A DNA stretch of 64,000 bases from a virus: IMG/VR virus record IMGVR_UViG_3300030098_005194, positions 38,397 to 102,396 of that record. One strand, written 5' to 3'. The position numbers and the translations under genes were made by a program. This document shows, piece by piece, positions 34,140 to 61,911 of this stretch. Below the pieces are notes generated by a model. That model was not told the origin of the DNA. It was given only the letters and a program-made list of their open reading frames with translations, and did no database searches. Each line of letters starts with the position of its first letter. Within the stretch, counting starts at the first letter, position 1.

Positions 34140-35365
34140 TATTGACCAGCTCCTTGTTGTCCTCTGAATAGCTGGTTGAATATATCAGCTATTTCATTAG
34201 CAGAACCGGCCCCTTGAGACGAAGGACTGGGCTCAGGTATTGTCTGGGAAAGGTTGCCACTCGCATCGAATATGTCAGGCATTTTTGGTTGTAATGCCCT
34301 CACATCAGGGTAAGCTTCTGCTATCCTTGCCCTTTGCTCATCAGTAAGTTCATCGCTCGGCGCAGGTTTTGGTTCAGGTGCAAAGAATTGTTCTGTCCTC
34401 GCTTGTCTCTCATCGAAACGCCTATCAGATTGTTCTTGTGCTAATTGCGCGGGCTCCTTTACTTTCTCTTGAACAGGTCTAGAAACCTTCACTGGTGGTT
34501 TTCTCGTGGGTGGTTTCACAAACTGGTCCAGTGTCATTTGACCTTCCGGTGGCATCACTGGTGGTTTTTCCTCTGATGGTTTTGGTAGAATTGGATTTCT
34601 CACTAAATTAGCAGCTGCTATATTAGCCGCTGGAGATGCTTCAGGGACATCGAAACCATATTTTTGAGCAAGAGCATTTCTTATTTTTCCCCAGCTCTCG
34701 GTAGCTCTTTGATTCTCTGGTAGTGTAGCTAACAATTCTGCGGCTTTCTTGTTTATGTCCTGTAAAGTCTGTGGCGCAAAATTTCCTAAGTTCTGAAGCA
34801 CATTCTGCATTTCAGGCATATTTGGTCTTTCAGCGGCCATTTGGTCTGAGGTCAATTGCCTATCCAAAGCATCCATTCTACCAGTTCTAGCAGCTCTTGA
34901 CTCTGCACCAGTTAGTTTTCCTGCATCAGAAGCTGGCTTTGCATAACCCTTGAATTCCCTCATGAATGCTTCATGACCATTTTTCTCATAATAACTCCTT
35001 AAGCCACTTCTAATTTTAGTAACTTGGTCCCAGAAATGTTGATAGTTTTTCATTTTTCTTTCGTATTCTTTGGTAGCTTGTGAGTGTCTATCCATCATTA
35101 TTTGATTTTTAGGTTTGGACCTATCGAGTCCTTCCTTGAGTGGTGGCACCTCTGTGGGTTTTTTGAAAATTTCAGGACCCAAATTTGGAGCTACTTCTCG
35201 TAGATATATACTCTTAGCCATATCGGTTAAATATTGATTTAGTGATTGAAGTTTTGCTCCACCACGACCAGTGCGGTCTTGTAATCTAACAAATCTTGTA
35301 CCAGCTTTTGATTTCTTCTTCTTTTTCTTGGCTTTGAGAAAGTCCCAAGAATACTGAAATGTCAT
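34139..35365 (-). CDS. putative internal head protein (408 aa) with W..LK leader and PIP-like QMTLDQF motif
   Basis: N-terminus MTFQYSWDFLK|AKKK; Pro-rich C-half. Confidence 0.6.
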   Translation of the reverse strand: MTFQYSWDFLKAKKKKKKSKAGTRFVRLQDRTGRGGAKLQSLNQYLTDMAKSIYLREVAPNLGPEIFKKPTEVPPLKEGLDRSKPKNQIMMDRHSQATKEYERKMKNYQHFWDQVTKIRSGLRSYYEKNGHEAFMREFKGYAKPASDAGKLTGAESRAARTGRMDALDRQLTSDQMAAERPNMPEMQNVLQNLGNFAPQTLQDINKKAAELLATLPENQRATESWGKIRNALAQKYGFDVPEASPAANIAAANLVRNPILPKPSEEKPPVMPPEGQMTLDQFVKPPTRKPPVKVSRPVQEKVKEPAQLAQEQSDRRFDERQARTEQFFAPEPKPAPSDELTDEQRARIAEAYPDVRALQPKMPDIFDASGNLSQTIPEPSPSSQGAGSANEIADIFNQLFRGQQGAGQ

Positions 35366-35646
35366 TCTTTGACCCCCATGTTATAGTTCATGGGTTTTCT
35401 ACAGGAGCCACAGGTTTCCCTCCACATAAAGTGGAGAAGACCACAGTGCGTACATCGAGTGCCTGAGCCTATATTGAGTACATCGGCGGCTTTCTTGGCA
35501 TTTGCTCTTTGCTTGCGAATCGCCCCTTTTAGGGGATTCTTTTCATCAACCACTACATTAGCCTGATAATGAGTATCTGAACGAATGTTCTGCTTTTGAG
35601 CCCTTTCGATGTCGTCAATATCGAGAGTCTGCAAATCGAAACCCAT
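35362..35646 (-). CDS. zinc-ribbon protein
   Basis: CTHCG...CGSC. Confidence 0.7.
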   Translation of the reverse strand: MGFDLQTLDIDDIERAQKQNIRSDTHYQANVVVDEKNPLKGAIRKQRANAKKAADVLNIGSGTRCTHCGLLHFMWRETCGSCRKPMNYNMGVKE

Positions 35647-35661
35647 TCATACCCCTCACCA

Positions 35662-35856
35662 TCAAACGTATGTTACAAGAATGTAAACATTACCCAAGAC
35701 CATGAAAGGGTCCGAGGCAATTAGACTAGTCGTACTCGACGCATCACTCAACGTGCCCACTGCCGAAGCAATGGTCGTTGTCAGCGTAGACGTGTCACTG
35801 AACTCCTTCGGTGAGAAGGGTCCCACGACTTTGTACTTCGGTGTTAGATTAGCCAT
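35662..35856 (-). CDS. small hypothetical virion protein
   Basis: GGCGGTGA SD; in capsid operon. Confidence 0.6.
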   Translation of the reverse strand: MANLTPKYKVVGPFSPKEFSDTSTLTTTIASAVGTLSDASSTTSLIASDPFMVLGNVYILVTYV

Positions 35857-35869
35857 TTAGGTCACCGCC

Positions 35870-36150
35870 TTAACTGCGGTGTCCCATAGCAAACCATGTA
35901 CCGTCTTGTCCATTCACATTCTGAATGACTAGACTGGTGCCGTTAATGAGTGCGAACACCCCATCGACTCCAGCCCCTGTACCAGCGGTGCTGCTTCCTG
36001 CAACTGCGTTACAGGCTACTATGTCAGCTAGTAGACCAGAGAGGTCTATGCTTCCACCTGCATCGCTACCGCCGTTTGTGAAGGTCCCAGTAACCATTAG
36101 TAGGTTACCCATTACGTGTGGTCTTGTGTCTATTGTACTCTCAAATGCCA
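35870..36150 (-). CDS. small virion (decoration-like) protein
   Basis: GAGGAGTGA SD; beta-rich; follows MCP cluster. Confidence 0.55.
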
Positions 36151-36157
36151 TCTATCA

Positions 36158-37059: not shown

Positions 37060-38190
37060 TCACTTTAGGTCACGAATGCTCCCGTGCGCTCCAAAGAAAG
37101 TGGTCCATATCTCGCCCATAGTTCGGTACAGTCCTTCCTGTCCTAGTCTGTTGATGGCGAATGGGTCACCAGTCTCAATTCCGCTCTCAAAGTATTGCGT
37201 AGGAATAGCTGTGCTAAAGTGTACGTAGTCTGTGTCTAGGAAGTACATCCTGCTTAGGCTGTCCTTTGGCATGTCCTTGGTTGGGATGATTGGTACACCG
37301 TTGTAGGTTGCCACGATGAACCCTGCCTCTACACCGGGGACACCCTTTACACCGTTGTAGGTTGGGGTAACTCTCTTCTCTTCCATGAACCTCTGCTGGG
37401 ACTGTAGCAACTGCTGTAGCCTCATTAGGGTGTCATATCCTGTTAGGATGACCTTGGGGTTTCCACCGCGCTCCCAGATTTGCTGGAACAATGTGTCCAA
37501 GTGGTCTAGGGATAGTGTCCTGTTTGTGCTTGAGCTGTTAGCTTCATCTTCTGCGAAAGCCCATGTGTTAGCACTTCTGTCAATGGAGTAGATGTCCTCA
37601 TCTCCAGCGTCGTAGTGGGTACCAGAGGTCATTGATGTGTTTCCAGTGGTAACTCTGTCCAGCGACTCAAAGTTGTTAGCTGCTGCAGTGGTAACATCTG
37701 TTAGAAGCATCTTGTTGACCATCTCAGCGTGGTGCTTGCCCATTTCTTCCTTTAGGACTGAGCGGATGTCTCCCAATCCGTCGTCTCTGTCTGCTAGGAA
37801 GATAGCTGTCTCGGACATGTCGAACGTGTGTGCGACCGTCTTTGGTTTTGCAGCTACGTGCTGGAAGGTAGGCTTCACTGTGTCTGGCAGTGTTGCGTTT
37901 TCTGCAACTCCGCCATGTAGGGCACCGCCGTTTGGCTTGCCTGTGATGACTCTCCATCCTGACCTGTCCCAAGGCTTCTTGGGTAGGATGCTGAATGCGT
38001 TGAACTCTTGGTTCAGTTGCGACCAGACCTTGCGCCCGTAAATTGCTTGGTATGTACCAGCAGTTGTGGACAGCATAGGACTGTCAGCCTTGAGTAGCTC
38101 GCTACCTGAGTAGGAGTAACCCATTGCGTTCCCGGCGCCATAGTAATAGCGCTCCATGTCTGTTATTGTTCGTACGTAATTTCTTGCCAT
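37060..38190 (-). CDS. major capsid protein (HK97 fold)
   Basis: Follows protease; GVAENATLP, PKTVAHTFDMSE, FESLDR, YNGVPII motifs; likely start MARNY; ELLK|AD candidate maturation site at 38089. Confidence 0.9.
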   Translation of the reverse strand: MARNYVRTITDMERYYYGAGNAMGYSYSGSELLKADSPMLSTTAGTYQAIYGRKVWSQLNQEFNAFSILPKKPWDRSGWRVITGKPNGGALHGGVAENATLPDTVKPTFQHVAAKPKTVAHTFDMSETAIFLADRDDGLGDIRSVLKEEMGKHHAEMVNKMLLTDVTTAAANNFESLDRVTTGNTSMTSGTHYDAGDEDIYSIDRSANTWAFAEDEANSSSTNRTLSLDHLDTLFQQIWERGGNPKVILTGYDTLMRLQQLLQSQQRFMEEKRVTPTYNGVKGVPGVEAGFIVATYNGVPIIPTKDMPKDSLSRMYFLDTDYVHFSTAIPTQYFESGIETGDPFAINRLGQEGLYRTMGEIWTTFFGAHGSIRDLK

Positions 38191-38195
38191 ATATC

Positions 38196-39050
38196 TCACT
38201 CTCCTCTAAATGCCTTATCTGCTAGGGCGTGAACCTCATCCCATGACATCCTGTGCATGTCTACTGTGGAGGGTATTTCTACTGCTGGCTCTGCTTCGCT
38301 CTTAGCGATTGGAGTACCAGCTTCAACTGTTCCTATGTTGTCGATTCGCTCATTGAGGGCGCTGAGAGCCTTCATTACCTCGTCAAGAGGACCACGTGCA
38401 TCGTATGCAGCTGCCTCTGCTTTTGCGATTTCCTCTGCTCTCTCAGCAGCAAACCTGTCTGCAAATCGAGATTCTAGTGAACCCCTGAACTCTTGCTCCA
38501 TAGCTGCAGCCTTGTATACCTCGTATGCGGCTTCTACATCTGCCTCTGATACTAGGTCTGGAGTTAGGAAGTCGGATTTCTTGACCTCTTTCTTCTCTCC
38601 TTTTCCACCTAGTCTTGCTATGGCGTTCGTTGAAGGCTTGCCGTTTTCCGACTCTCTGTTAGGGGTCTGACCATAATCTAGGTCAAACTCTTCAGGAGTG
38701 GAACCAAGGTTAGCTTTTGCTAAGTCATCAAAGTGACCCCTAGCTCCTGCAACATCGACTCCGGCACTCTTCAGAGTGTTCTCCATCCAGTCAAGGTACT
38801 CAGATGAGATAACGTCAGAGTATTCATCTGACTTCATTTTCTTGTCGTCATCTGCATACATTTTCTCATCCTTGTCATCATCTTTCTTGTCTGGTGCTGG
38901 CGCCTTTTCTTTGTCGTCCTTTGCATCCTTCTTGTCTTTCATGGCTTCTTTCAGTTGTGGAGGCATTGCTTTCTCCATACTGTCAAGCCTAGTCTCTAGT
39001 CGAGCAAGAACATCGCCCAACTGTGTCTGCATGTCATTTTCTTCTGTCAT
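38196..39050 (-). CDS. nested in-frame scaffold protein from internal start (MTEEND...)
   Basis: AAGGTGAAAAAAATG: archaeal SD before an in-frame ATG right after the protease domain. Confidence 0.6.
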   Translation of the reverse strand: MTEENDMQTQLGDVLARLETRLDSMEKAMPPQLKEAMKDKKDAKDDKEKAPAPDKKDDDKDEKMYADDDKKMKSDEYSDVISSEYLDWMENTLKSAGVDVAGARGHFDDLAKANLGSTPEEFDLDYGQTPNRESENGKPSTNAIARLGGKGEKKEVKKSDFLTPDLVSEADVEAAYEVYKAAAMEQEFRGSLESRFADRFAAERAEEIAKAEAAAYDARGPLDEVMKALSALNERIDNIGTVEAGTPIAKSEAEPAVEIPSTVDMHRMSWDEVHALADKAFRGE

Positions 39051-39605
39051 TTTTTTCACCTTTTCTTCTGTGTTTTCTGAGTCAGTCTCCTGCTTTAGAA
39101 TTCTAAATGTAGCTTCTGGATTTATCCCTTTTTCACAAATTGTGATTTCATGAAGCTCAAGCTTGCTGATTTCTTGATAGTCGCCGTGTCTTGGGTCGCT
39201 CTTCCTGACTCGCTTGAATGCTTGTCCTCCGATGCTGAATCCCCGTAGTTTGCCTTTCCTAATTTCGGCGGCAACTTCTCGTGCTTTTTCGATGTCGTCT
39301 CTAAGTTGTATAACCACAAACATGCCAACATCGTCAACTTCGCTTTTCCATAACCTCCCTTCTGTATCTGTATATGATGGTACTACTTCTCCTACCTGTA
39401 TATTTGAGTGAGCTAGTTGGACGTTTCTGTATTTCGGGTCGCTCATGAATTTCCGAAATCCGTCCTTCAATGCCTCCTTTGTAATTAAATCGCCTTGTTT
39501 GTCTACTAGCTCCACACTAGCGTATCCTGCAACAACGAGGTCATTGCCAGCCTTAAGGAGTCCAATGGACTCATCAACACCATAGAGACGTTCTTGTGAC
39601 AGCAC
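38196..39605 (-). CDS. HK97-family prohead protease fused to scaffold domain
   Basis: VAGYASVELVDKQGD, H in LAHSN, GFSIGG catalytic Ser, EITICEKGINPEA; coiled-coil C-half. Confidence 0.9.
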   Translation of the reverse strand: MLSQERLYGVDESIGLLKAGNDLVVAGYASVELVDKQGDLITKEALKDGFRKFMSDPKYRNVQLAHSNIQVGEVVPSYTDTEGRLWKSEVDDVGMFVVIQLRDDIEKAREVAAEIRKGKLRGFSIGGQAFKRVRKSDPRHGDYQEISKLELHEITICEKGINPEATFRILKQETDSENTEEKVKKMTEENDMQTQLGDVLARLETRLDSMEKAMPPQLKEAMKDKKDAKDDKEKAPAPDKKDDDKDEKMYADDDKKMKSDEYSDVISSEYLDWMENTLKSAGVDVAGARGHFDDLAKANLGSTPEEFDLDYGQTPNRESENGKPSTNAIARLGGKGEKKEVKKSDFLTPDLVSEADVEAAYEVYKAAAMEQEFRGSLESRFADRFAAERAEEIAKAEAAAYDARGPLDEVMKALSALNERIDNIGTVEAGTPIAKSEAEPAVEIPSTVDMHRMSWDEVHALADKAFRGE

Positions 39606-39670: not shown

Positions 39671-42600
39671 TCAAGAATCGTTAGACCGAGAGGCTATTTT
39701 CTTTCTTTTTGGATAGTCTTCCGGCTTTTCAGGGTCTTGTTCTGGTCTTTCCTTCATATCATAATCCGGTAGAGTTGCCTCATTAGCCAACTTAGTGGGA
39801 CCTCTAGGACTGTCTATGTCACTACCAACGTCTACCCCTAGACCCTTACCCGCTGTCATTGGAAAATGTCCTTTTTCTAGAGTGTCTAGGATTTTCTCTA
39901 TTTTTTCCAAGGCTTCTAGAGTGCTAGGTTTGAGAAGAATATTCTGGTCCTCGTTTGGTTTTAGGACGCCTCCGCTCTGTCTGCCTATTCTCTTAGCATC
40001 CTCCTCGCTTATTCCCTCATCCTCTTCTTTATCGTCTTCATCTTCTTCAACGATTTCTTTTATTTTCCTTTTTTCTGCTTTGAGCATCTGTTGGAAAGCG
40101 GGCTCCCAGTATTTTTCCAGACTCTTTGCTAGTATCATCGTGTAATCCCGGTCTTTGAGGCCACCCAAAGCCGAACGTGGATTTTCCAAGCTATCCTCCA
40201 CTATGTCATACTTGAGTATGTCATGGTCAAAGTGCAGTATGAAGACCTCCCCATCTATCTCCATACCAAATGGCACATGGTAGTCATCATCGGATTTTGT
40301 CATTAGTATCCACTTCGGATGCTTCTCTTCTCCCTTCATGTAAGTGGATTTAGCATCCCTGAGTAGTAGCTTTGAGCCCTTATTCTCCCTCTGTAGGAAT
40401 TTTATCGCATCGCTCAAACCATCATCATCGGTGACTTTCAGATTGAACGGTCCGGGCACGAAAACGTCCTCATTGCTATCGAACTGCCCACGTAGTAGCT
40501 TTATCCTCTCCCTAGTGGGCATATCAGTAACATCGGTATCGTCGTAGTGCATGATATCGAATATGTGCAAACCAGAGCTGTTAAGCACAGCATCCATGAC
40601 ATAGTTGTTCTTCCCTATTTTTCTAAGGGAGCTTCTCATACCATCGCTTGTACCAACATCCTCATTGTCATCATCCTTGACCTCTATCCTATTCGACTTC
40701 CTAGTTACTTTCACTCTAGTGCCCTCTTCCATCACAGAGACAACCCATTCCCCAGTGAAACCCCGTAGCTCTTGCAGGTCCTCCATGTCGAATATCTTGT
40801 GATAGGGCTCTATTAGTGGCATTTCCTTTGGTAAGGACTTAGCTATCTCATGTGGGACCTGCAATCCTGACATTGGGTTGCTTTCCGATACCCTCTCCAT
40901 GTTGGAAGTGGTGCTTGGTAACATAGCCTCATTGACACCATTGACTTGGAAATAAGCATCCATCTGATTGTAAGAACCCTCTTGAAAGTGTTCCATCAAT
41001 TCTTTTATTACTGGCTCACTTGGCGGTACCGCTGGGCCAGCGCTGGTATTTGTCCCATACTCCATATTTCCATCGTAGCCTAAATTAAGCGAAGCAGAGG
41101 GTGCAGGTAGTTCCATACTCATTTGTAGTTGAAGACCTGCACTTGTGTAACGGGACCCGATTATGGCATCCGAATTTGGGTTAGTGACTGGACCTATCTT
41201 GGCATCGCCCATTTTTATCGGACGCTTCAAATTAGTGCCTGTATCACCAAATTGGTCCAGTGTCATCTGTCCTTCAGGCATAGCAGGAGGAGGCGTTGGT
41301 GCTGCCACCCTCGCCTCTGGATTGAAAAGAACTAGACTGTTGGCCTTTCTCTTGGCTCTGGCCATGGCCCACTCATAACGAAGTCTTTCTGCACCTTTGC
41401 CTTTATCCTCATTACCATGTATGTCTTTAGGTAAGTTACTCAAAGAAAGACCGTGTTGTATAGCAGTGTTGCCTTTGTGTGCCATGCTGAGTTTCATGTA
41501 ATTGTTATTTATCGAATTGTAATGCTCATTATTGTTATTAAAATCGTTTTTGTGATTGTCAGGAAGTTTAAGACCACGGATTTGACCCCTATAGCGTTTT
41601 AACTCATCCTCCATCAATTCATGGGCTCTCATTGGGTCATCTTTCATCCCATCATCGTCAAAGAGATGGAAGTCCTCGTTAGCGTGTGCTGCAAGTTGAG
41701 CGGTAGTCATTGCATAATGAGCGGGCTTGCCCTCCAGACTCTCTAGGAGTTCCCGCATGTACTCCCTGTATCCGGGGTTATCGTAGGGTAATCCCATGCC
41801 TATCAAACTCGCTGTGACATGCATATCTTCGACTTTTCCACTCTCTGGGAAACTAAGCAGAGTGCCCTCTTTCTCAAGCACATTGGCTTTTCGACGGAAC
41901 ATGTCGCCACCGACCATGGCATCTATCGTCTGCTCATCAACAGCATCCCCAATCATGATGTCCCTGATACTTTGACCATGGAAGCTGTGAGGCATGTGCT
42001 TCATAATCAACTCAGCATCATGCATGGCTTGGGATAGGTCAGCCACGGTTTGCTCAGGATTATTAGGGTCAAACAAGTTAGGATTTATCTCTAGCATAGC
42101 AGGTATGGTTATGTTCTTGGCAACTTCCATTCTAGCTCTTTCTTCAGCTTCTGCTCTTCTTTCTTTTTGTACAAGTGTATCCTTATTAAAGGAATTAAGT
42201 TTAGCTCGTAAATTAGATTGTTGCGTGTGTATGCGTCCCTTCAGTTCATCTATCAACTCTTGAGAGGCATCCTCGCCTGATAGCTCAATCTCCTCCAGCT
42301 CGCTTTGAAGCTCCGCTATCCTCTTTGTGTCTTCTATGCCCAAAGAGCCACCTAAAGCAAAAAGAGCTTTCTCAAACGCTGAGTATCCACCCTCTCCATC
42401 ATTTTCAAAAGGAAAACCGTGTTTGCCTTCAAGCATCTCATTGACTGGTATTCTCATCACAGGCGAGCCGAGCCTCCTCCTACCAGTGTTAGGGTCAATT
42501 GACCCGAACTTGTATTGGGCACCAGACATTAGATACTCACGCATTATCTCAGAGGAGTTATGTGCCTTCTTGCTATCCAGAGCCTCTGATTTTGTGTTAC

Positions 42601-44881
42601 CTGTTTTGGTTCCGAACTCATGATATTGATTCCTATGTATACCTCTTTTTCTACCATCTTTAGACCTTAGAAAACCAACACTGTCTCTGGTTATTTCAGC
42701 TCTTGGGTTCCTGCTCCTTGACCAGAAGGTAGTGGCTCTTGGCGTGAGTGAATGAGCGGTATCGCTACCATTAGCCCTGTTTCTTGGTTTTTTGTCACCT
42801 AAATCTACATGACTGGTACCCAAGCTCTGGTCGTGCATGCTCATTATCTCGGCAGGACTGAAGCTCTCGCCTCTCTCTCTGACAACGTGGTGCATGGCGC
42901 CCAAGAAGCCCGACATGTCTGGTCTGGGTACGAAGAAGCCATTCTCATCCATTTCGCCAAACAAACCCGGTGCGATACTATTCAGCATGTCAAAGAAAGT
43001 AGTGGATTCCATGGGATTGCTACCAACCTGCAAGTCATGTGCCCAGTAATCAGATAGTCCTCTCAAAGTCCCATTTTTCTCTATGAAGTGATTTCTTATT
43101 TCTTCGGGTGCATCCCTTATGTCCGGGCCCGCACTCTTGGCGAACACGGCATTGGCATTGGCTATGTCCTTGCTGTCACGAGCTAGTGACATTCCATCTC
43201 TATACATCTCCTCTAACTGGTTGATGTAGTCATCTGCCTTCATGTTCTCATGAGCGAGGGGCTTTTTACCCTCGTCAGTTAGAAGCTCAGAGAGGGGATG
43301 CTCCTTCAGATGCTTCTTCAACTGGGGTATGGTGAAATTACTAACGGGAGCATAATCCTCTACCCTCAAAACTTCTCTAAGAGCCTCCTTCTCATCCATT
43401 CCTTTTTCTATTCGCTCGTCTATTGCATCTCGTATTTTCTTAGTGCGTTTTTCGCCATAGATGGGTATGTGTGTTAATTTTTGGTCGCCCTGTAATTCTA
43501 GTAGCTCATTATAATGGTTCAATAAGGAGTCGAACATGTTTCCATGTACCCCATGGTCTATTTTTGCTAATAGACTACGAATTGGCTCCGTTTCACTACC
43601 AGTGTACTCTGTGCCATCCAGCTCATCGCTTTCCAAGTGTTTAGCTAGATTGGGCTGTCCCCGGTTATGGGGCATTTGGCTGTGGAGATACAAAGGCGTC
43701 ATTCTCTTCTGAAAGTTTCTCCTTAGTCTTCCAAGTGGTATTTCAGTGCCATCATCGAGCTTTATCTTGTCGCTTGTGTTTCCCTTGTTCTCCTTAAGAT
43801 GCTCTATGACTTTGGTTCTCTCAACAGGACTGAGCCATTCCAAGCCAAGGCCATATCCAAGAAGTCCAAGTCTGTGTGGGTGTTGCCTCTCAGTAGGAAC
43901 CTTTCTCTGAACGCTCTCTGCTACGCGAGAGCCCTCTTGTCTCTCCCCTGCTCTTTTGGGAAAAAGCTTGCTATAGATGTCATCATATTCTATTTTTTCT
44001 TCTTCAAAATTTCTACCCTGCCATAATTCAGCTGCTTTCTCAAGGTGCATTTCCCTGATATCCTTATCAGAGGCGCCTTGGGATTTAGCCTTGTCAATCA
44101 TCTCTTGATTTTGACTTGACCACTTTGTGAAAGCCCTCTCATACAGACCCTCTTGAAAAGCACCAGAAGTACCTACTTGCTCAGAAATGGTTCTATTTGA
44201 GTCGTTGGTGGTTAACCTGCCTAAGAAACCATGGGTAATCTCATCATCCATATCAGCTCTTTTTGATTTTCTGATTTGGCCTATGATTATCGGATTACGT
44301 AAATTATCGTAATGTGTCTCATGTGCCCTCTCCGCATCAGCATGCGAGGATGCAACGCTGTTTCCATCGTCGTCTTTTCTGACATAACCCAAGAGTTTCT
44401 CAACCATTCTAGAATTACCAGTAGAGCTGTTCTTCTTGCGTAGTGGGTGTATCGATTCATGGAAATGATGATGTTTGTAATTGCTATCACCGGGAACGAC
44501 CCTTGGGAAGAGCGAGGAAGCTAGCTCGATATTCTCATTGTCAATTAACTCATTCACATGCCTGTGGCTGGCAACAGCGGGACCAACAGTTCTTCTGCTT
44601 ATTCTGCCTTTTTTGTCGTAGTCATACCCCTCATCAGCACGCCCGCCAAACGCTAGCTCTGCTGAGAGGTCACCGATGGTTTTTTTGTACAACAACATCG
44701 TGCTGGCTTCATAGCAGAAATCATCAACAGGGTTGTTCTGTAATATCATTTCCTTATTCATTATGTTTCGTAGACTATCCATGTAGGCAGTAGCCTCTTC
44801 AGTGTAATCATCACAAGAAACTATGCTCTTGAGTAAATCATCCCTAGCGCGAAGATGAATGACATAATCGTTCTCTTGCAC
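39671..44881 (-). CDS. 1736-aa putative internal head polyprotein with degenerate ATP-dependent DNA ligase domain near C-terminus
   Basis: EWVVSVMEEGTR / YVMDAVL / HIFDIMHYD / ERIKLL / LLLRDAKSTY / KW align with ligase motifs I, III, IIIa, IV, V; lies between portal and protease. Confidence 0.75.
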   Translation of the reverse strand: MQENDYVIHLRARDDLLKSIVSCDDYTEEATAYMDSLRNIMNKEMILQNNPVDDFCYEASTMLLYKKTIGDLSAELAFGGRADEGYDYDKKGRISRRTVGPAVASHRHVNELIDNENIELASSLFPRVVPGDSNYKHHHFHESIHPLRKKNSSTGNSRMVEKLLGYVRKDDDGNSVASSHADAERAHETHYDNLRNPIIIGQIRKSKRADMDDEITHGFLGRLTTNDSNRTISEQVGTSGAFQEGLYERAFTKWSSQNQEMIDKAKSQGASDKDIREMHLEKAAELWQGRNFEEEKIEYDDIYSKLFPKRAGERQEGSRVAESVQRKVPTERQHPHRLGLLGYGLGLEWLSPVERTKVIEHLKENKGNTSDKIKLDDGTEIPLGRLRRNFQKRMTPLYLHSQMPHNRGQPNLAKHLESDELDGTEYTGSETEPIRSLLAKIDHGVHGNMFDSLLNHYNELLELQGDQKLTHIPIYGEKRTKKIRDAIDERIEKGMDEKEALREVLRVEDYAPVSNFTIPQLKKHLKEHPLSELLTDEGKKPLAHENMKADDYINQLEEMYRDGMSLARDSKDIANANAVFAKSAGPDIRDAPEEIRNHFIEKNGTLRGLSDYWAHDLQVGSNPMESTTFFDMLNSIAPGLFGEMDENGFFVPRPDMSGFLGAMHHVVRERGESFSPAEIMSMHDQSLGTSHVDLGDKKPRNRANGSDTAHSLTPRATTFWSRSRNPRAEITRDSVGFLRSKDGRKRGIHRNQYHEFGTKTGNTKSEALDSKKAHNSSEIMREYLMSGAQYKFGSIDPNTGRRRLGSPVMRIPVNEMLEGKHGFPFENDGEGGYSAFEKALFALGGSLGIEDTKRIAELQSELEEIELSGEDASQELIDELKGRIHTQQSNLRAKLNSFNKDTLVQKERRAEAEERARMEVAKNITIPAMLEINPNLFDPNNPEQTVADLSQAMHDAELIMKHMPHSFHGQSIRDIMIGDAVDEQTIDAMVGGDMFRRKANVLEKEGTLLSFPESGKVEDMHVTASLIGMGLPYDNPGYREYMRELLESLEGKPAHYAMTTAQLAAHANEDFHLFDDDGMKDDPMRAHELMEDELKRYRGQIRGLKLPDNHKNDFNNNNEHYNSINNNYMKLSMAHKGNTAIQHGLSLSNLPKDIHGNEDKGKGAERLRYEWAMARAKRKANSLVLFNPEARVAAPTPPPAMPEGQMTLDQFGDTGTNLKRPIKMGDAKIGPVTNPNSDAIIGSRYTSAGLQLQMSMELPAPSASLNLGYDGNMEYGTNTSAGPAVPPSEPVIKELMEHFQEGSYNQMDAYFQVNGVNEAMLPSTTSNMERVSESNPMSGLQVPHEIAKSLPKEMPLIEPYHKIFDMEDLQELRGFTGEWVVSVMEEGTRVKVTRKSNRIEVKDDDNEDVGTSDGMRSSLRKIGKNNYVMDAVLNSSGLHIFDIMHYDDTDVTDMPTRERIKLLRGQFDSNEDVFVPGPFNLKVTDDDGLSDAIKFLQRENKGSKLLLRDAKSTYMKGEEKHPKWILMTKSDDDYHVPFGMEIDGEVFILHFDHDILKYDIVEDSLENPRSALGGLKDRDYTMILAKSLEKYWEPAFQQMLKAEKRKIKEIVEEDEDDKEEDEGISEEDAKRIGRQSGGVLKPNEDQNILLKPSTLEALEKIEKILDTLEKGHFPMTAGKGLGVDVGSDIDSPRGPTKLANEATLPDYDMKERPEQDPEKPEDYPKRKKIASRSNDS

Positions 44882-49518: not shown

Positions 49519-50994
49519 TCACGGCACCATCCACCCGCTGGATTTAGAGTTACCGTCAAACCAGCCGTCAAAGTTCTCCATTACATCATCAAGAAGAACA
49601 ACCGAGCCCTTGAACTCCTTAGTTGCCCAGTTAGCGAGAGCCAACCCCATAGCCAAGTCGTCATGAGTGCCAACACTTTCAAGTCGGCCATTTTTCTGCA
49701 TACCAAACCTATTGAGTTCTTGCTCAAGTTGATGAGTGAATTTGCGGCTCTTTTCATCACCATATGGAGTTTTAATATGGCCTTGCTCAAAGGCTAAAAG
49801 AAGTGACATGAAAAGCGATTCCTTTCTTGTTCTAGTAGTCATGAAAACTTTGATTGGCATGTCAGAAGCCATCTCCCTCATCTCAGCTTCAAGCATTCTT
49901 TGGAAGTTATTTCCCTCAAGTTCTATCAAATCAGGCTGGAACTTATTGTTTAGAATGACCATCATTCTTTTCTGAGCCATTGATGACATACCTCTCTCAT
50001 GCACAGCGTGTATTATCTGCTTATGTGGTTCATTAGGTAACATTCTGAGAACTACCATTGCTGTGAAATCTGCGTTTTTATCCGATGATATTGCGGGGTC
50101 ATGTCCTATGAAGTGTTGACCAAAGACACCATTAGGCTCTCCTTCCTCGTTGTATTCTGTGTCGGCTCTTTCAAGCAACACCAAGTCATTGTCACGAGCA
50201 AGCTCAAGTATGTCCATTGGAAACATACTCGCAACATCGTGAATCGGCTCGCATAGATACTCACGGCTGAATTGTATAGCTGGCATGGAGAGTCTTCTTT
50301 GTTCTAGAGCCTCCAAGTCCCAACGCTCAGGCCAAAGTGCGACTCCCTCTCTGTTTATGGCCGGGTAAGTCTCGACTGTGAAAGTCTCCTTCTGCTCCAA
50401 CTCAGCGTACAAGTCGTTGTAGCTAAATGGCGTTCCGACCATCATTAGTCTGGAGCTGTGGTGGAGAACTGGGAGAAGAACACCGTAGAACCAGTCTGCG
50501 GTTCTTTGTAGTTCGGTTCCGCTTGTGCCCCAAAGAATATCGTCACACACAACTACATCTGGGTGGAAACCACGAGTTGCTCCACCAACGGACTTTGCCA
50601 TTATACGAGAGCCGTTTGTAAACTCAAAGTATGATTTAGCCCAAGGTTTGCCTTGTGGTTTGAGGTGTCTGAGAACATCCGAACTCTCTATGTTGTTACG
50701 AATGAATCTCATATGCTCAAGAGTTTGCTCAAGGGAGTGAGAGAATATCATGATGTGAGTACCGGGGTTGAATGCAGCTAACCACAAAGCGTAAGACATG
50801 AAAAACACGGATTTGCCGTGGTCACGAGAAGCCTTGACGCAGTAGTATTGGTTCTCATCAAGGCCCTTTCCCCAAGACTCATGATGATGATTGTAGAGAA
50901 ACTCAAGAACATCAGTGAAAAAATACCTGAAGGACTTCTTGGACATCTCCCTATCCATCTCAAGGACGAACTCTTTCATGTCCTCCTTGACCAA
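49519..50994 (-). CDS. terL: terminase large subunit
   Basis: Walker A ASRDHGKS, Walker B VVVCDD, VGTP motif, nuclease GHDPA and HDDLAM. Confidence 0.95.
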   Translation of the reverse strand: MVKEDMKEFVLEMDREMSKKSFRYFFTDVLEFLYNHHHESWGKGLDENQYYCVKASRDHGKSVFFMSYALWLAAFNPGTHIMIFSHSLEQTLEHMRFIRNNIESSDVLRHLKPQGKPWAKSYFEFTNGSRIMAKSVGGATRGFHPDVVVCDDILWGTSGTELQRTADWFYGVLLPVLHHSSRLMMVGTPFSYNDLYAELEQKETFTVETYPAINREGVALWPERWDLEALEQRRLSMPAIQFSREYLCEPIHDVASMFPMDILELARDNDLVLLERADTEYNEEGEPNGVFGQHFIGHDPAISSDKNADFTAMVVLRMLPNEPHKQIIHAVHERGMSSMAQKRMMVILNNKFQPDLIELEGNNFQRMLEAEMREMASDMPIKVFMTTRTRKESLFMSLLLAFEQGHIKTPYGDEKSRKFTHQLEQELNRFGMQKNGRLESVGTHDDLAMGLALANWATKEFKGSVVLLDDVMENFDGWFDGNSKSSGWMVP

Positions 50995-50998: not shown

Positions 50999-51742
50999 TC
51001 ACCTCCGACTTCCAAACCTGCTGAAACCAAATTCATCTAAAGTAGGGGCTTCGCTTGCTTCAGTTCGTTGGTAGTTTTGTTGACTTACATCAATAGGTGA
51101 ACCGGGTATCACTGGCATCATTCTATTACCTGATTGTCTTATTACATTCTGCATGTCAGGAGTAATTGTTCCTTGCGTCGGCATCGTGTCACGACCAAAT
51201 GGTATGTTTGGGTTTTTTCCCATTTGTGAGGCTTCTTCAATCATTCTAGCAGAATCTGGAGTTTGACCGGGCATTGGAGGAAGAACTGGGTCTACTTTCA
51301 AATTTTGAGCCACTGTGTTTCCAGTGTTATCTGCTGGCATTTGAGTAGTGTTACTATCATCGCCACGAGCCATTTGAAGAATTTCCATCATGTTCATATC
51401 TGAAGTGTCTGGAGGAGGAGCTTCTTTTACACCAAATTTATCTCTGAAAAGTCTCTCAGCCCCTGCCCCCAACTGATTGAAAGTAGAGTAATTGGTTAAT
51501 CCAGCCATTCCTGCCGAAGCCAAAGCAGAGCCAAGGTCAGTCTGGTCACGACTAGCTAGAGTTCTAAGTGCGCCGTATCCACCTGCTAAGTAAGGTAAGA
51601 ATTTCAAGGGACTAGTCATTCCTTTGCCTGTGCCAATAGGAATCTGCAAGGAACCTTGACCAGATGAGTCCATTTGTAAAGCAGTTTGTGCAGGTATAAA
51701 TTCATCAGGATTCTGCTTCCTCAAAACATAGACATTACCCAT
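50999..51742 (-). CDS. putative internal virion protein (VYVLRK leader, Gly/Ala hydrophobic segment)
   Basis: GGGGTGA SD before MGNVYVLRK; C-terminal PTLDEF. Confidence 0.55.
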   Translation of the reverse strand: MGNVYVLRKQNPDEFIPAQTALQMDSSGQGSLQIPIGTGKGMTSPLKFLPYLAGGYGALRTLASRDQTDLGSALASAGMAGLTNYSTFNQLGAGAERLFRDKFGVKEAPPPDTSDMNMMEILQMARGDDSNTTQMPADNTGNTVAQNLKVDPVLPPMPGQTPDSARMIEEASQMGKNPNIPFGRDTMPTQGTITPDMQNVIRQSGNRMMPVIPGSPIDVSQQNYQRTEASEAPTLDEFGFSRFGSRR

Positions 51743-51743
51743 C

Positions 51744-54110
51744 TCAATCACCCCTGAAAGACAGCTTGACTATCTTGATATCTCTCTCAGAGAAACCGAA
51801 AGACTTGTTCAACCTCATCCAATCACCCTTGCTCTCGTTTATCAACCTGATATCTTGAGGGGCGAGGCCAAGCTTTTTGGCAATTGTGGAAACATCATGA
51901 GGAGAATCTATGGAAAGCTTATCTTTACTTACATGCTTGATTATTGTGGAATCGGTTTTAGCATCTTTGATTTGAAGTCTTTCCATGGTCTTGATTAGCC
52001 TATCTTGCACTTCTTCAACCGAACCCTCTCCTTTCATGTACTCTGTGATGAGTCTCTGGTACGGGTCACTGAAAGCGCCTCTAAAACGCTGTATTTCTGG
52101 TTGGGTAATTGGTGCAGTGCTACCACCAGACCTAGCACCGCCTGTTCTTATCAGTTGTCTCAACTGGTCATCACTAAGATTAGCCGCCCCTGCTCTAGCA
52201 GCGGTGATTTGCTCAGGCGTCAAACTAGGAGTTGCTAGATTTGCAGAAGTTGGTGGTTGTGTTTGTGCTACGTTACTAGGTGGTGTGGCCATTTGTGTCA
52301 CTTGAGGTACGACTGGTGCAGGTGGCAAATCTTGTGTTGAGCCACCCATCGCTTCTGTAGTTCCTTCGGCTATTGTGTTTTCAACAAGAGGGGAGTACCT
52401 TACATGGTCTGCCAAACTCATACCTTGATTAGTTGGTAATTGAAAACTGGTGCTGACCGCAGGTTGTGTTGGTAAGTCTATTGGATGAGTTAGTCTTGTT
52501 TCATGACCTTTCGCATCAGCTAAGAACTCTGATATCGCTTCCATGACACCTCTGATTTCCTCCACTTCGCCTTCATATGGCTCATGATGCTTTATGTTGT
52601 ACTTCGCTTCTAGCTCAGGGGTTAATTCTGTAGTTCTCAGTTTGAAATTACCAGCATTGTTACCCATCGCTTCCTCATGTCCACTATGAAGTGCCAAAGC
52701 ACGCATGTCCTTGGCTCTGAGATGCCTACCAGTTCCGTACCTCCCTTGTACAGCACCGACGTGATTTTGAATGCCACCTAAATCCAAAGCACCTGCTGGT
52801 AATTCAGCAGTGTCTTGGAGTCCCGTGTGCAACTCAGTGAAGGCGCTAGCAAGTCTACCAGCAGGTGAATCTGGTGAAGTTTTGCCAAATATTTTCATAA
52901 AAGCATCATAACCAAGTAATTTAAAAAGAAACTCTTCTCTTTGTCCGTCAGTAGCTAGAATTTGTGAAAGTGGCCTTCCCTGATACATAGTATTGGCAAG
53001 AGCAGGGTGTTCAAGTGGATTCAGAGTTTGCTTCACTCTTCCCGTAGCAATAGCTTCTCCACCTACACTACTGTGCCCTATCGCATCCATGATTTCTTGA
53101 TTAGCAACTCTTACTGCCCCTGTTGGTTCTGCACCCTCGCTATATTTTCGTGTGCCTTTTCTAACTCTTCTAAAGAATCTATCAGGTAACATATGTGCTA
53201 TGCCATATGCTGATGTATCAGGAAAAGCAATATCAGTATCTATCCCGGCTTCACTCAATCTAGAAAGTATATCATTTCTGAAAGCGTGCCTTGTCTGATA
53301 ATTACCACCATACACTTGCCCTGTTCTAGCTGAAGTATTATTTCTGTAATATTGCGGATTTTCAGGGGTTGATTTTGGACTTAGTGCAAAACTTAGGTAA
53401 GCGCTTCTTATATGTGGTCTGGTAAGAAAATCATTTCTACCTTGTGGTGGGTCAAGATTATGTTTTTCTTTTAGGATTCTAGCGAGAGCGGGTTGAAAAG
53501 GATTAGCCAAGGAATCTAGAAACATCCCGTGAGGTGATTTAACACCATGAAAATTTCTGTAACCAGTTATCAGTTGTTTCTGTCCATCGATGGTAACATA
53601 ATGCTGTCTAGCTCTTCCTTCTCGTTCAAATTGAGGTCCTTGGTAGTCACTCATGACTAGCCTTCGCCAAGCCTTATCACCTATATCGGGAAGGTGATTA
53701 TCTGGATTGTCTCTATATAGAGGGTCATTGTTTGTTGCTTCTATGGCTTCTTGAACCAACTTTGCAGCATCATCATCAATACCCTCACTCTTGAGTAAAT
53801 TACCCAAATTGTGTATAACACCATCTATACCATGAAAATGTAGGCCACCAAGCTCGTCTTTGTACACCAATTCGCCATGTGGTCCGATTTCATATTTTCC
53901 GGGTATTATATTTCCAACGCCAAACTCCCCTGTTTCTTCTTCAGCATGACTACCAGTATGTGCGAAAGGAGGAGCGTGGTCTATCCCGTTTGGGTCAGTG
54001 TTCTTGACCTCTTCCGGTGGATGTCTTTGGGCTCTTTGTTTTCCTTCCCAATAAATGAAATTTCCATCGCTCTTTTTCAGGGTTTTAGGTAGAACTCTAA
54101 CCTTGCTCAT
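51744..54110 (-). CDS. putative internal virion protein (788 aa)
   Basis: Leader MSKVRVLPKTLKK|S; QRLITEYMK|G before a helical C-terminal domain. Confidence 0.6.
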   Translation of the reverse strand: MSKVRVLPKTLKKSDGNFIYWEGKQRAQRHPPEEVKNTDPNGIDHAPPFAHTGSHAEEETGEFGVGNIIPGKYEIGPHGELVYKDELGGLHFHGIDGVIHNLGNLLKSEGIDDDAAKLVQEAIEATNNDPLYRDNPDNHLPDIGDKAWRRLVMSDYQGPQFEREGRARQHYVTIDGQKQLITGYRNFHGVKSPHGMFLDSLANPFQPALARILKEKHNLDPPQGRNDFLTRPHIRSAYLSFALSPKSTPENPQYYRNNTSARTGQVYGGNYQTRHAFRNDILSRLSEAGIDTDIAFPDTSAYGIAHMLPDRFFRRVRKGTRKYSEGAEPTGAVRVANQEIMDAIGHSSVGGEAIATGRVKQTLNPLEHPALANTMYQGRPLSQILATDGQREEFLFKLLGYDAFMKIFGKTSPDSPAGRLASAFTELHTGLQDTAELPAGALDLGGIQNHVGAVQGRYGTGRHLRAKDMRALALHSGHEEAMGNNAGNFKLRTTELTPELEAKYNIKHHEPYEGEVEEIRGVMEAISEFLADAKGHETRLTHPIDLPTQPAVSTSFQLPTNQGMSLADHVRYSPLVENTIAEGTTEAMGGSTQDLPPAPVVPQVTQMATPPSNVAQTQPPTSANLATPSLTPEQITAARAGAANLSDDQLRQLIRTGGARSGGSTAPITQPEIQRFRGAFSDPYQRLITEYMKGEGSVEEVQDRLIKTMERLQIKDAKTDSTIIKHVSKDKLSIDSPHDVSTIAKKLGLAPQDIRLINESKGDWMRLNKSFGFSERDIKIVKLSFRGD

Positions 54111-55408
54111 GCAGTGGCTCCCCCACGATTTTCAGGAAGGATACCTGTCATATCAGTGGCGTCCTCGGTTCCTCCTTGTGGTCGTGAGGTCTGTTTGAAT
54201 CCACCATTCTTGCTCTTGGGTTTGTCATCCCCAGCTCCAGCAGTGTCTTTGGTTCCCATCGATTTATTCTTCTTGTCCTTGTCTCTAAGTTCTCTTCTGA
54301 TTTCAAACAGCATTCTTCTCATCTCGGCTATATCCGATGCTGTAATTTTTGCTTTGAGAATATCACTGTATGGTATATGGTCAGAACTCATCTGAAACTG
54401 TTGGTTTGGGCTTGGCATCGGCATTGGTGGCGCTATCGCCGTGACTGGTGGAGGTCCCATTACGCTTTGTCTTAGACCCATTTTACCCATAGACAATCCA
54501 GCAGAAGGAGTCTTAGGTCTGTTTAAATGAGGCATCGAAACTCTATGTGACATTCTAGGAGAGTGTATTCTGGGCTTTCTAACACCAACTCCACTAAGAA
54601 GCCTACCGCCACCAGTTGGTCCTGCTTGGTATTTTCTTTGTCCAAACCTTCTTTGTGAAGATGTGTCTTGTCTTACTCCACCTAATCTTTTTCTAGCTTC
54701 CATCGCACCTTGATAATCTCTATATCTAGCAGGGTCTTTTGATAATGGTTGTTTGACCGACACACCCCTGTGTTCCATTTCAACTGCTTTTGGTGCATCT
54801 TTCATTCCAGTTAATTTACCTCTTGAAACTGCCCTTCTAACACTTTTTCTTCTTCTCTCAGTAGCAGTTTTTGGTCCCAAAGAACCACCGGGTGGCATCT
54901 TGAACTGTCCCGTAGAAGGTCGGAATTTCTTACTTCTCTCTTTCTTATCTTTCTTTGCTTTCTTACTTTCTTTTGATTTTAAAAGACTAGACCAAGCATT
55001 ATCCATAACCTCACTCATGGCGAACATATTTCCACCAGCAGCGCCGGGTCCTTTTGCTTGTGTAGCAAGACTTGTGAGAAAACCACCATTACCGGGTGGC
55101 CCAGTGATAGCTGAGATTTCTCTTTCAGCATTTCTTTTATCTGGGCTGTACATACCATCATCGTCATCTTCGTTCTCTTCAGAGGGTGGTAAGTCTTTCG
55201 GTCTAATACGAATGTGCTTTACTTTTGCACGCTCTCTCTTTTCCTTTTCTTTTCTTTTTTGTTTCTCTTCATATTTCTCATCACGATGCTTTGCGTCGTC
55301 AGGACTGTACGTATCTTCTTCGTGATTATTTCGATACATATGTGATGATTCACTACGTGGATTATACATCCTCGTATCGGAGGAACGTCCCTGCATACCC
55401 TCCGTCAT
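54107..55408 (-). CDS. basic low-complexity putative core protein (433 aa)
   Basis: Internal SEVMDNAWSSLLK|S tag followed by a very Lys/Arg-rich region; DILK|A. Confidence 0.6.
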   Translation of the reverse strand: MTEGMQGRSSDTRMYNPRSESSHMYRNNHEEDTYSPDDAKHRDEKYEEKQKRKEKEKRERAKVKHIRIRPKDLPPSEENEDDDDGMYSPDKRNAEREISAITGPPGNGGFLTSLATQAKGPGAAGGNMFAMSEVMDNAWSSLLKSKESKKAKKDKKERSKKFRPSTGQFKMPPGGSLGPKTATERRRKSVRRAVSRGKLTGMKDAPKAVEMEHRGVSVKQPLSKDPARYRDYQGAMEARKRLGGVRQDTSSQRRFGQRKYQAGPTGGGRLLSGVGVRKPRIHSPRMSHRVSMPHLNRPKTPSAGLSMGKMGLRQSVMGPPPVTAIAPPMPMPSPNQQFQMSSDHIPYSDILKAKITASDIAEMRRMLFEIRRELRDKDKKNKSMGTKDTAGAGDDKPKSKNGGFKQTSRPQGGTEDATDMTGILPENRGGATA

Positions 55409-59552: not shown

Positions 59553-59563
59553 TGGAACCTCTC

Positions 59564-60279: not shown

Positions 60280-60347
60280 AATTATTCATTATTCTTTCTA
60301 TACACTATAATAATTATTATTTCATCTAAAGGAATAATAGAATAATT
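60280..60347. repeat. AT-rich dyad: (ATTATTC)x2 - ATAATAATTATTAT palindrome - (GAATAAT)x2
   Basis: Inverted arms centred on the 14-bp palindrome 60307-60320. Confidence 0.8.
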
Positions 60348-60351
60348 AGAA

Positions 60352-60672
60352 TTATACGATTTTAACCCAATTAGACTTAACAATCGTCGGTTTCCCACCA
60401 ACACCCTGCTTTTTGGCCCGCTTTCTTTTTGTTGCGGCCCGTTTCTGTCCACTTGACATGCTTCCAGATGTCTTCGGAGTCTTGCTCGATACCTTTACTG
60501 AGGGTCTGCATTTCGGGTAGCCCTTTCCTGATAATTTTGCCTTTGACCGTCCACAAGGAGGATGTTTGCCTGTCTTCGGGTCCTTCCTCGATACGTCCAC
60601 CCACTTCTCCTTGAACCAACGATTCAGGTTCTTCACAACTAACGTGTTGTGGCAGGTGCAGCGTTCGCTCAT
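60352..60672 (-). CDS. small basic protein (RWFKEKWVD...CGRS...YPKCRP family)
   Basis: CTCH...LVVK|N leader; very basic. Confidence 0.7.
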   Translation of the reverse strand: MSERCTCHNTLVVKNLNRWFKEKWVDVSRKDPKTGKHPPCGRSKAKLSGKGYPKCRPSVKVSSKTPKTSGSMSSGQKRAATKRKRAKKQGVGGKPTIVKSNWVKIV

Positions 60673-60863
60673 TTCTTCTTCCCCTTCTTGCCTCTGAATT
60701 TTCCTCTACAATACTGTACGGCCCATCCATTAGCATAGGCAGAGGGATAAACTTTGAATTTTCTTTTTGCTGCCGCTTTTCCTTCCGGGCAGAGTTTCTT
60801 TTCCAAAACATCCCAAGCACCGTTCATACCTACGCAGTGACCACAACCACAAGAACCTATCAT
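60669..60863 (-). CDS. small basic protein (KRKFKVYPSAYANGW family)
   Basis: CGCGHC + MNGAWDVLEK leader. Confidence 0.7.
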   Translation of the reverse strand: MIGSCGCGHCVGMNGAWDVLEKKLCPEGKAAAKRKFKVYPSAYANGWAVQYCRGKFRGKKGKKK

Positions 60864-60877
60864 CTAATATCCCACCG

Positions 60878-61159
60878 TTATTTTTTCTTATTATCCATTT
60901 CTTTTAATTCAGGATGATATAGCATTTTTACTTTCTTGGCGTCTTTTTTAATAGATTTTCCATCTACTAAGACTTCTATTGGATATGGTTCATGGTCATC
61001 ATACCAATAAGCCATTTCATAGGCTCCATTTTTCAATAGTTTTACAATTAAACCCCTTTTGTGTTTTTTATCATCTGCTTCAAGAATCATTTCCTTACCT
61101 TGTGGAAGAATCAAATCAGCTTCCTTTCTCTTTTTTAATAAGTACCACCAGTCCGACAT
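60878..61159 (-). CDS. small protein with WWYLLK leader
   Basis: Start MSDWW coupled to upstream stop (TGATG); AT-rich gene. Confidence 0.65.
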   Translation of the reverse strand: MSDWWYLLKKRKEADLILPQGKEMILEADDKKHKRGLIVKLLKNGAYEMAYWYDDHEPYPIEVLVDGKSIKKDAKKVKMLYHPELKEMDNKKK

Positions 61160-61911
61160 CAACAGTTCCACCTCTTCAATGCTGCACCTTTGGGAGTTAG
61201 TTTACCGTCCTTACTAGTTGGTCCCTTAGAACCACTCATACGAGCGCAGAATGACTTGCGCCTTTTGGCCCTCTTGCTTCCGGGTTTGAGTTTGGATGGC
61301 TTGGTTGTGACAGGTGGTTTTAGATTAGCGCCTGTCTCTCGCTTGAACTTAGCACGACCAGCAGCATTTAAGCCACCCTTTCTATGATGCCTCTTGGGAT
61401 TGTAACCGTGAAACGGCTTTGACTTCTTCTTTCCTTTTTCAAAAACAGAGTCCAAAAGAGCCATGGAAGCCTGTTGCATTGGTGTGCAACAATCACAGGT
61501 TTCAGATTTCAAAGTCAATGGCACAAGGTTCTGTCTAGGTATACCACCAGCTCTGACATTACTCTCAGTTCCAGCAAATACACCACCTGCTGGCTCTGCT
61601 TGTCTTACTGGTTCTGAAAGTCCCCCTGCTCTCACGCCAACCACGCCTACGCTACTCTGAGGTAAGCCTAGCTTTTTGGCTCTTTCTTGTGCAAACCTAA
61701 GTGCCAGCTCCCTATCAGGTGAAGTGTATGATATTTTTTCCTCTCCCCTTAGTGGTTTGGGAATGTAGCGTTTGGACCTACCTGTGGTTGGACCTCCCCT
61801 GATTCCCTCTTCCATAACTGCTGGCATATCAACAGTACCATGATATTCGCTAACTGGGCCCATGCTACTAGGAAAATCTTGATGAAACTCACCGAGTTCA
61901 GTCTGTCTCAT
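61159..61911 (-). CDS. two-domain protein: ADP-ribosyltransferase-like domain + basic SFCARM...WNC domain
   Basis: YHGT...GI...YTSPDRELALRFA...IP..NL ART pattern; internal tag; GGLNAAGR...RRKSFCARM...RWNC. Confidence 0.65.
   Translation of the reverse strand: MRQTELGEFHQDFPSSMGPVSEYHGTVDMPAVMEEGIRGGPTTGRSKRYIPKPLRGEEKISYTSPDRELALRFAQERAKKLGLPQSSVGVVGVRAGGLSEPVRQAEPAGGVFAGTESNVRAGGIPRQNLVPLTLKSETCDCCTPMQQASMALLDSVFEKGKKKSKPFHGYNPKRHHRKGGLNAAGRAKFKRETGANLKPPVTTKPSKLKPGSKRAKRRKSFCARMSGSKGPTSKDGKLTPKGAALKRWNC

Follow-up and report, generated by a model that had tools for sequence, protein, structure and literature searches.

In bacteriophage T4 the sliding clamp gp45 is a platform for late transcription, and gp33 and gp55 carry C-terminal clamp-binding tails. 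Small or disordered proteins such as the Thermococcales inhibitor of PCNA (TIP; 5DA7) and the p21-type inhibitors occupy the client site of the clamp known as proliferating cell nuclear antigen (PCNA), which they inhibit. The PCNA-interacting protein (PIP) boxes of archaeal clients, among them FEN1, RNase HII, the RFC large subunit and PolB/PolD, have a Q-x-x-L-x-x-aromatic core, as in 1RXM (A. fulgidus PCNA with the FEN1 tail) and 1ISQ (P. furiosus PCNA with the RFCL peptide). Among archaeal viruses, SIRV2 proteins (gp1 and others) bind the PCNA of Sulfolobus, according to the account in PMC5537682 of Gardner et al. 2014. Here, motifs with the same core are described in a window of 64,000 nucleotides, the whole stretch of DNA that was analysed, which covers bases 38397-102396 of the IMG/VR record IMGVR_UViG_3300030098_005194. 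This window takes in the morphogenesis half of the genome, about 102 kb in size, of a magrovirus, an uncultured tailed virus, and the motifs in its late operon are probably clamp-docking boxes of the type carried by FEN1 and RNase HII of the presumed host, the Poseidoniales, a reading that draws on sequence comparison and structural modelling.

The magrovirus motifs resemble and depart from each of these systems. The core is shared with the archaeal client boxes, as are the PCNA contacts in a model (interdomain loop, pocket and C-terminal tail). Those boxes lie at the extreme C-terminus of replication and repair enzymes, whereas the viral motifs are for the most part placed inside the chain, within long disordered linkers, and are carried by morphogenesis-operon proteins. 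As with SIRV2, proteins of an archaeal virus would engage the host clamp, but magrovirus binding is predicted only; SIRV2 is a rudivirus without its own clamp whose binders are early and linked to replication or recombination, whereas the magrovirus has a clamp and carries the motifs in its late structural operon. T4 is alike in having its own clamp and loader and in placing clamp peptides on non-replisome proteins, which tie late functions to replicated DNA, but it infects bacteria and its peptide is not the same, and the magrovirus carriers include no identified late-transcription factor. TIP and the p21-type proteins occupy the PCNA client site in the manner proposed here; they are inhibitors, whereas the magrovirus carriers are large multi-domain or disordered proteins. 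A literature search within one searchable library returned no paper linking magroviruses and PIP boxes. Engagement of PCNA by viral proteins is already known from SIRV2, and what is unusual here is that the carriers belong to a morphogenesis operon and that the motif is spread over many fast-evolving proteins.

Five motifs had been singled out in an earlier sequence-only reading of the window, and translation of the minus strand located every one of them:

34520-34540, minus strand: QMTLDQF in the context PPEGQMTLDQF (PPEGQMTLDQFVKPP), residues 276-282 of a 408-aa accessory protein (open reading frame, ORF, 34139-35365, minus strand) in a slot between homologues of a 94-aa and a 521-aa protein
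41249-41269, minus strand: QMTLDQF in the context MPEGQMTLDQF (AMPEGQMTLDQFGDTG), residues 1205-1211 of a 1736-aa protein (ORF 39671-44881, minus strand) encoded between the portal and maturation protease genes
51029-51046, minus strand: PTLDEF, within APTLDEFGF, residues 236-241 and nine from the end of a 250-aa protein (ORF 50999-51751, minus strand) in the small-terminase position directly upstream of the large terminase (TerL), no family assigned
52035-52058, minus strand: QRLITEYM, followed by KG, residues 685-692 of a 788-aa conserved magrovirus protein (ORF 51744-54110, minus strand) encoded two genes upstream of TerL
61885-61905, minus strand: QTELGEF after M-R, residues 3-9 of a 250-aa protein (ORF 61159-61911, minus strand) with an N-terminal domain and a DUF6321 domain (Pfam, E 1.5e-17, residues 176-248)

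Four of them have the PIP core Q-x-x-[LIMV]-x-x-[FYW]; the fifth, PTLDEF, is without the Gln.

The motif region of the 788-aa protein reads DPYQRLITEYMKG, and QRLITEYM is part of the short element that this family conserves best. Its Q685 is one of 18 invariant columns in an alignment of 24 sequences, and among 40 homologues with a mean identity of 30% the Gln, the [LIMV] and the [FYW] of the triad were kept in 100, 100 and 98%, respectively. When about 40 families were tested alike, this was the only triad conserved in a highly divergent family; two other families with a conserved triad have 65-71% identity, and one of those triads lies inside a region matched to an HNH endonuclease. The family consensus is [SG]DP[YQR]-Q-x-x-[LI]-[TS]-[DQE]-[YF]-x-[KR]-[SGA], flanked by linkers that vary in length. 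QTFLTDY is found in many members, with the Thr-Asp that also marks strong PIP boxes, the one of p21 among them, and additional copies (GQMTLGDFP, GQTSLTDF) occur in the linkers of homologues. In an AlphaFold2 model the motif segment lies between helices, with a predicted local distance difference test (pLDDT) value below 50 at residues 683-695; it is preceded by a disordered linker (578-632) and short helices and followed by a helical C-terminal domain whose last 50 residues are weakly helix-turn-helix-like (Z 4.8). The protein has no match in Pfam, PHROGs, a PDB profile search, ESM Atlas, Foldseek (PDB, BFVD) or VIA-align wide. Its N-terminal domain (about residues 12-575) was modelled confidently and is likewise without a match in PDB or BFVD.

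The two QMTLDQF carriers, described as unrelated in the sequence-only reading, are otherwise just that, since their best BLASTP alignment is the motif itself. Over the ten codons shared by the PEGQMTLDQF copies there are four synonymous and no non-synonymous differences, which argues for selection on the peptide and not for a fresh DNA duplication. Among the window's 49 proteins (20,819 residues), the strict pattern Q.[ST]L[DE].[FYW] was seen twice, with 0.055 expected.

The 408-aa protein has the N-terminus MTFQYSWDFLKAKKKKKK and belongs to no Pfam or PHROG family; its QMTLDQF sits in a Pro/Lys-rich segment. A search among 1.84 billion representative proteins returned two credible relatives, one close and one distant, and the distant one, at 27% identity, keeps the motif as QPTLDDF. 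A third match was rejected as a low-complexity false friend. The slot between the 94-aa and 521-aa homologues is empty in most of 55 related loci examined. Proteins found in it elsewhere have 10-27% identity to the 408-aa protein and are unalignable with it apart from the motif, and in six of eight slot lineages Q..[LM]..[FW] occurs exactly once, at a shuffle probability of 0.05-0.15 per lineage. The forms seen are QMTLDQF, QMTLDAF, QRSLEEF, QTKLTDF and QMTMDDW. The slot is also a hot spot of gene turnover (loci L001-L080), in some of which it is filled by unalignable disordered proteins of 170-780 aa.

The proteins directly upstream of TerL in related loci carry Qxx[LIM]xx[FYW] in 24 of 59 unique sequences, against 8.0 +/- 2.5 expected, with examples including QTTLDEF, QTTLNDF, QSRLTDF, QSSLGEF and QRILDEYGFDF. 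The APTLDEFGF of the window reads, by comparison with these sequences, as a copy that lost its Gln. Neither this protein nor ten positional counterparts had a family match or a small-terminase signature in PHROGs.

In the 1736-aa family, homologues outside the near-identical relatives have DEGxxxx...GDxG at the place aligned with QMTLDQF, so that the motif, which adjoins a proline-rich insertion, evolved in place by substitution in a linker. Elsewhere in this protein, residues 1437-1518 give a weak, sub-threshold Pfam match to the ATP-dependent DNA ligase adenylation domain (E 0.0023); the motif I of this ligase-like region (about residues 1350-1560) is MEEGTR, without the catalytic Lys. The 1736-aa and 788-aa proteins had no homologues in cultured phages or haloviruses.

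The N-terminal domain of the DUF6321 protein was called "ART-like" in the sequence-only reading, and the label is used by that reading only. Its homologues keep QTELGEF as Q[TS][ET]LGE[FY]. In some relatives the domain with this type of motif is fused directly after an ...AWxxLK(AT)R tag, so that the M-R-Q start in the window falls at a module boundary. Two Lys-ending tags recur in these viruses. One, F..AW..LLK, is found at N-termini and at internal module borders (63317-63646, 61908-63320, 54107-55408 and, at the N-terminus, 34139-35365). The other, MSK[IV]LV[KR]K, forms the N-termini of TerL-upstream proteins (L089-L149), of the 788-aa protein (as MSKVRVLPK) and of some accessory-slot proteins. 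A PIP-like motif stands directly beside a tag in relatives (...AWRFLKATR-QTTLGEF; QTSLGQF-DKMDLAFSLI).

Enrichment was measured over 240 magrovirus loci, comprising 928,281 residues of non-redundant plus-strand reading frames, with a pattern taken from the host FEN1. Q.[ST]L..F was seen 32 times, against 12.2 +/- 3.4 expected. The sole enriched pattern among 13 controls was Q.[ST]L..Y, itself PIP-like, with 22 seen and 10.4 expected; the other 12 (the reversed motif, N, E or K for Q, V, I or A for L, L for F, and four altered spacings) gave observed/expected ratios of 0.08-1.34. The Q.[ST]L matches are spread over a wide variety of late-operon proteins, where they lie in Pro/Thr/Gln-rich stretches.

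The form of the motif was compared with client tails of Poseidoniales, whose genomes were picked from the Thermoplasmatota by their rhodopsin genes in a phylum-wide search. The PCNA clusters of the genomes so picked carry the NCBI names Candidatus Poseidoniaceae, Poseidonia alphae, Poseidoniales and Thalassarchaeaceae; ten genomes chosen by PCNA score had no rhodopsin. FEN1 of Poseidoniales ends in GGQTSLFSF, KGQSTLFDF, AGQSTLLDF or SSQP[ST]LFDF, and RNase HII in QSSLDEW, QSTLEDW, QRSLDDF, QTTLDLF or a short QRTLF. The viral QMTLDQF, QRSLEEF, QTSLDDF, QTTLDEF and QMTMDDW share several features with these tails: a Gly or other small residue precedes the Gln, position 3 is Ser/Thr, position 4 is Leu, positions 5-6 are acidic and position 7 is Phe/Trp, usually with no second aromatic.

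The sequence-only reading had proposed that such motifs dock on the PCNA of the Poseidoniales, and for the 408-aa copy a complex model agrees with this at the level of prediction. For Poseidonia alphae PCNA (10-row alignment) with residues 256-300 of the 408-aa protein (4-row alignment), the median interaction prediction score from aligned errors (ipSAE) was 0.82 (runs of 0.83, 0.82 and 0.76), compared with 0.00 for the best of three controls. Of 80 solved complexes, 58 reach the mark applied to this score, as do 2 of 110 mismatched pairs; this calibration is only approximate with self-supplied alignments. Contact agreement between the runs was at least 77% and the pLDDT of the partner at least 57. 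The modelled contacts join PCNA residues 39, 41-46, 122-124, 194, 219-220, 237 and 239-244 to residues 270-284 of the 408-aa protein and centre on L279. On the PCNA side, the modelled contacts cover the canonical PIP site, made up of pocket strand, interdomain connecting loop and C-terminal LAPR tail.

The proposed mechanism follows that of known boxes. A motif of the form (G)-Q-x-[ST]-L-x-[DEQ]-[FWY], placed in flexible Pro/Thr/Gln-rich segments of several late-operon proteins, would form the usual short helix, bury its Leu and Phe in the hydrophobic pocket beneath the PCNA interdomain connecting loop and pair with the C-terminal tail of PCNA. The carrier would then be tethered to a sliding clamp on DNA, or the client site of the clamp would be occupied. 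The PIP-type interpretation made in the sequence-only reading holds up, insofar as comparison and modelling can support it, on conserved islands within disordered or variable segments, a host-like form, enrichment across loci and the docking model. Binding in cells, host PCNA as the target, and the timing are what we infer from it.

Several observations weigh against the PIP-type interpretation. The loose pattern Qxx[LIM]xx[FYW] was seen 10 times in the window's proteins, compared with 8.3 +/- 2.7 in shuffles, and this count, being at chance level, was rejected as evidence. PTLDEF is missing from a relative of 89% identity, whose C-terminus reads ...GTQTTLF. QMTLDQF in the 1736-aa family is confined to near-identical relatives (L001, L002, L088), and QTELGEF is inseparable from the fold of its domain, of which it may be no more than a piece. 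The second aromatic of the textbook PIP box is absent, though it is also absent from the host FEN1 tail ...GQTSLFSF. Homologous copies inflate the enrichment counts, though they inflate the controls equally. The outcome of the docking runs may express likeness to solved PIP-PCNA complexes, possibly memory of them. The Poseidoniales host, finally, is presumed from the literature (PMC10768690) and from motif likeness only.

The count of the loose pattern and the degenerate, unconserved PTLDEF are what would be expected of chance matches without function. That explanation is highly improbable for the set as a whole, given the conservation in families of 10-30% identity, the exclusively synonymous differences between the two QMTLDQF copies, and the enrichment at family and locus level over matched controls; it is already disfavoured for QMTLDQF and QRLITEYM and possible for PTLDEF alone. 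Conservation in relatives, a check offered in the sequence-only reading, was above chance for four of the five instances.

A virus-internal signal, for example for capsid targeting, scaffold or portal binding or protease recognition, could also produce a recurrent short motif, whose likeness to a PIP box would then be coincidental. Every carrier lies in the morphogenesis operon, the motif often adjoins Lys-ending tags and conserved K-[SGA] sites, and targeting by short helical peptides is known in HK97-fold shells, encapsulins for example. However, the conserved positions are exactly Q1, L4 and F/Y/W7, with other spacings and residues depleted or unenriched, the host FEN1 and RNase HII end in the same shape, and the peptide was modelled in the PIP pocket while the controls scored zero. 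Such a signal is very unlikely to account for the motif.

A PCNA-fold clamp is also encoded by the virus itself. A 265-aa protein (record positions 26746-27543; L082:7746-8543), encoded outside the window between an RFC-like gene and PolB, was recognised by its position, a weak PHROG match and its fold. Its AlphaFold2 model (pLDDT 85.5, predicted template modelling score 0.82) has a two-domain beta-alpha-beta-beta-beta clamp fold and matches archaeal PCNAs with a Foldseek probability of 1.0, a template modelling score of 0.60-0.67 and 13-15% identity. A search of the virus record with the Pfam PCNA family (PCNA_N) gave no match and missed this protein. Since the virus encodes a PCNA-fold clamp, host PCNA is not the sole possible target, and the motifs could instead dock on this divergent clamp late in infection, coupling packaging or other late functions to replicated viral DNA, in the way that gp45 serves late transcription in T4. 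The gene order beside the RFC-like gene and PolB and the nature of the carriers, late-operon proteins near the terminase, speak for such coupling. It is nonetheless unlikely: PolB and the RFC-like, nuclease and primase proteins of the virus have no such motif at their ends, which mildly favours host PCNA as the target and may mean that another peptide is recognised by the viral clamp; the tail of this clamp (…IVVIDQQA) is unlike the host LAPR tail contacted in the model; and the motif closely matches the host client tails. Host PCNA is more likely to be the target than the viral clamp.

Two early ORFs near these genes or in the same module have PIP-like ends. A 124-aa ORF beside the RFC-like gene (record positions 22487-22861; L082:3487-3861) ends in ...KQFDLAVF; as it has only two close homologues, its conservation is uninformative. 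A 160-aa ORF (record positions 14712-15194) has TMTLQTWF near its end.

The setting of the carriers bears on when the motifs would act. All window ORFs of substantial size are on the minus strand, and the following were assigned with PHROGs and Pfam:

37060-38199, minus strand: HK97-type major capsid protein
38196-39605, minus strand: head maturation protease
46511-48286, minus strand: portal
48268-49428, minus strand: HNH endonuclease
49519-50994, minus strand: TerL

At 34% identity, the major capsid protein matches its counterparts in HCTV-1 and HVTV-1, which are haloarchaeal tailed viruses. The record is 102,396 bp long and rated 97% complete. Its remaining 38 kb are transcribed in the opposite direction and encode an SNF2 helicase, the RFC-like clamp loader, PolB, a PD-(D/E)XK nuclease, a primase-like protein and a group II-type chaperonin. 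The published description of the Magrovirales comprises two divergent modules, an own replisome, a chaperonin and kinship to those haloviruses, with an association to the Poseidoniales (PMC10768690); the virus is identified as a magrovirus because its size, divergent modules, replisome, chaperonin and kinship to HCTV-1 and HVTV-1 match that description.

Other features of the genome were observed. Downstream of the tail genes lies one ORF of 5697 codons (9688-26781 of the window, minus strand), extraordinarily large for an archaeal virus. In the early module (record 1-38000, plus-strand ORFs), many proteins have acidic C-termini (...GEEE, ...GDEE, ...DEEE), which may be a by-product of a purine-rich ribosome-binding sequence for the next gene inside the preceding frame. 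Contigs identical or nearly identical to this virus have been binned in metagenome-assembled genomes labelled Maricaulis sp. or Legionellales bacterium (L083 = NZMJ01000138.1; protein P0013); these are probably mis-binned viral contigs.

In the sequence-only reading the carriers were held to be packaged, to enter with the DNA and to dock on or sequester host PCNA right after infection, a time that would precede any viral clamp. The 1736-aa gene does lie between portal and protease, an interval that in tailed viruses often houses genes for head-internal proteins. The N-terminal F..AW..LLK is common to the 408-aa protein and others, and beside such tags relatives have a PIP-like motif, and the motif mimics host PIP boxes, with nothing comparable on the viral replisome. 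Against this, the carriers have no homologue in cultured viruses with known virion proteomes, and the window proteins gave no match to Phage_Mu_F or any other head-internal family in Pfam and PHROGs. The motif is, moreover, most frequent in the TerL-adjacent protein and invariant in the 788-aa protein, which places it in a packaging-module position, and in tailed viruses the products of the terminase module are not normally found in the virion. This part of the sequence-only reading is unlikely. Docking late in infection on clamps left on replicated viral DNA, tied to packaging and head filling, seems at least as likely as action after injection.

In a bolder variant, to which little probability is assigned, capsids would be loaded with a changing cargo of disordered or polyprotein-derived proteins, each with a copy of the host PIP box, and this cargo would seize the Poseidoniales PCNA on entry; protease cuts at neighbouring Lys sites would expose the motif at the end of a chain, as in FEN1. 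The aim would be either a halt to host replication or the transfer of the clamp to the incoming genome. Were this true, an injected arsenal aimed at the clamp would have been described for the first time in an archaeal virus, and PIP mimicry would provide a sequence-based means of host assignment for uncultured archaeal viruses.

Magroviruses are abundant in the oceans and have no cultured member or host, so that their biology is read from sequence. The PIP-type interpretation gives a first handle on three conserved unannotated magrovirus families, namely the 788-aa, TerL-upstream and accessory-slot proteins, and the interaction it predicts could be tested without culture, with peptides and recombinant Poseidoniales PCNA or viral clamp. 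The host-like form of the motif adds independent support for the assignment of a Poseidoniales host. For the magroviruses themselves, a role of the sliding clamp beyond replication is suggested, be it for packaging and the filling of heads or for taking over the host.

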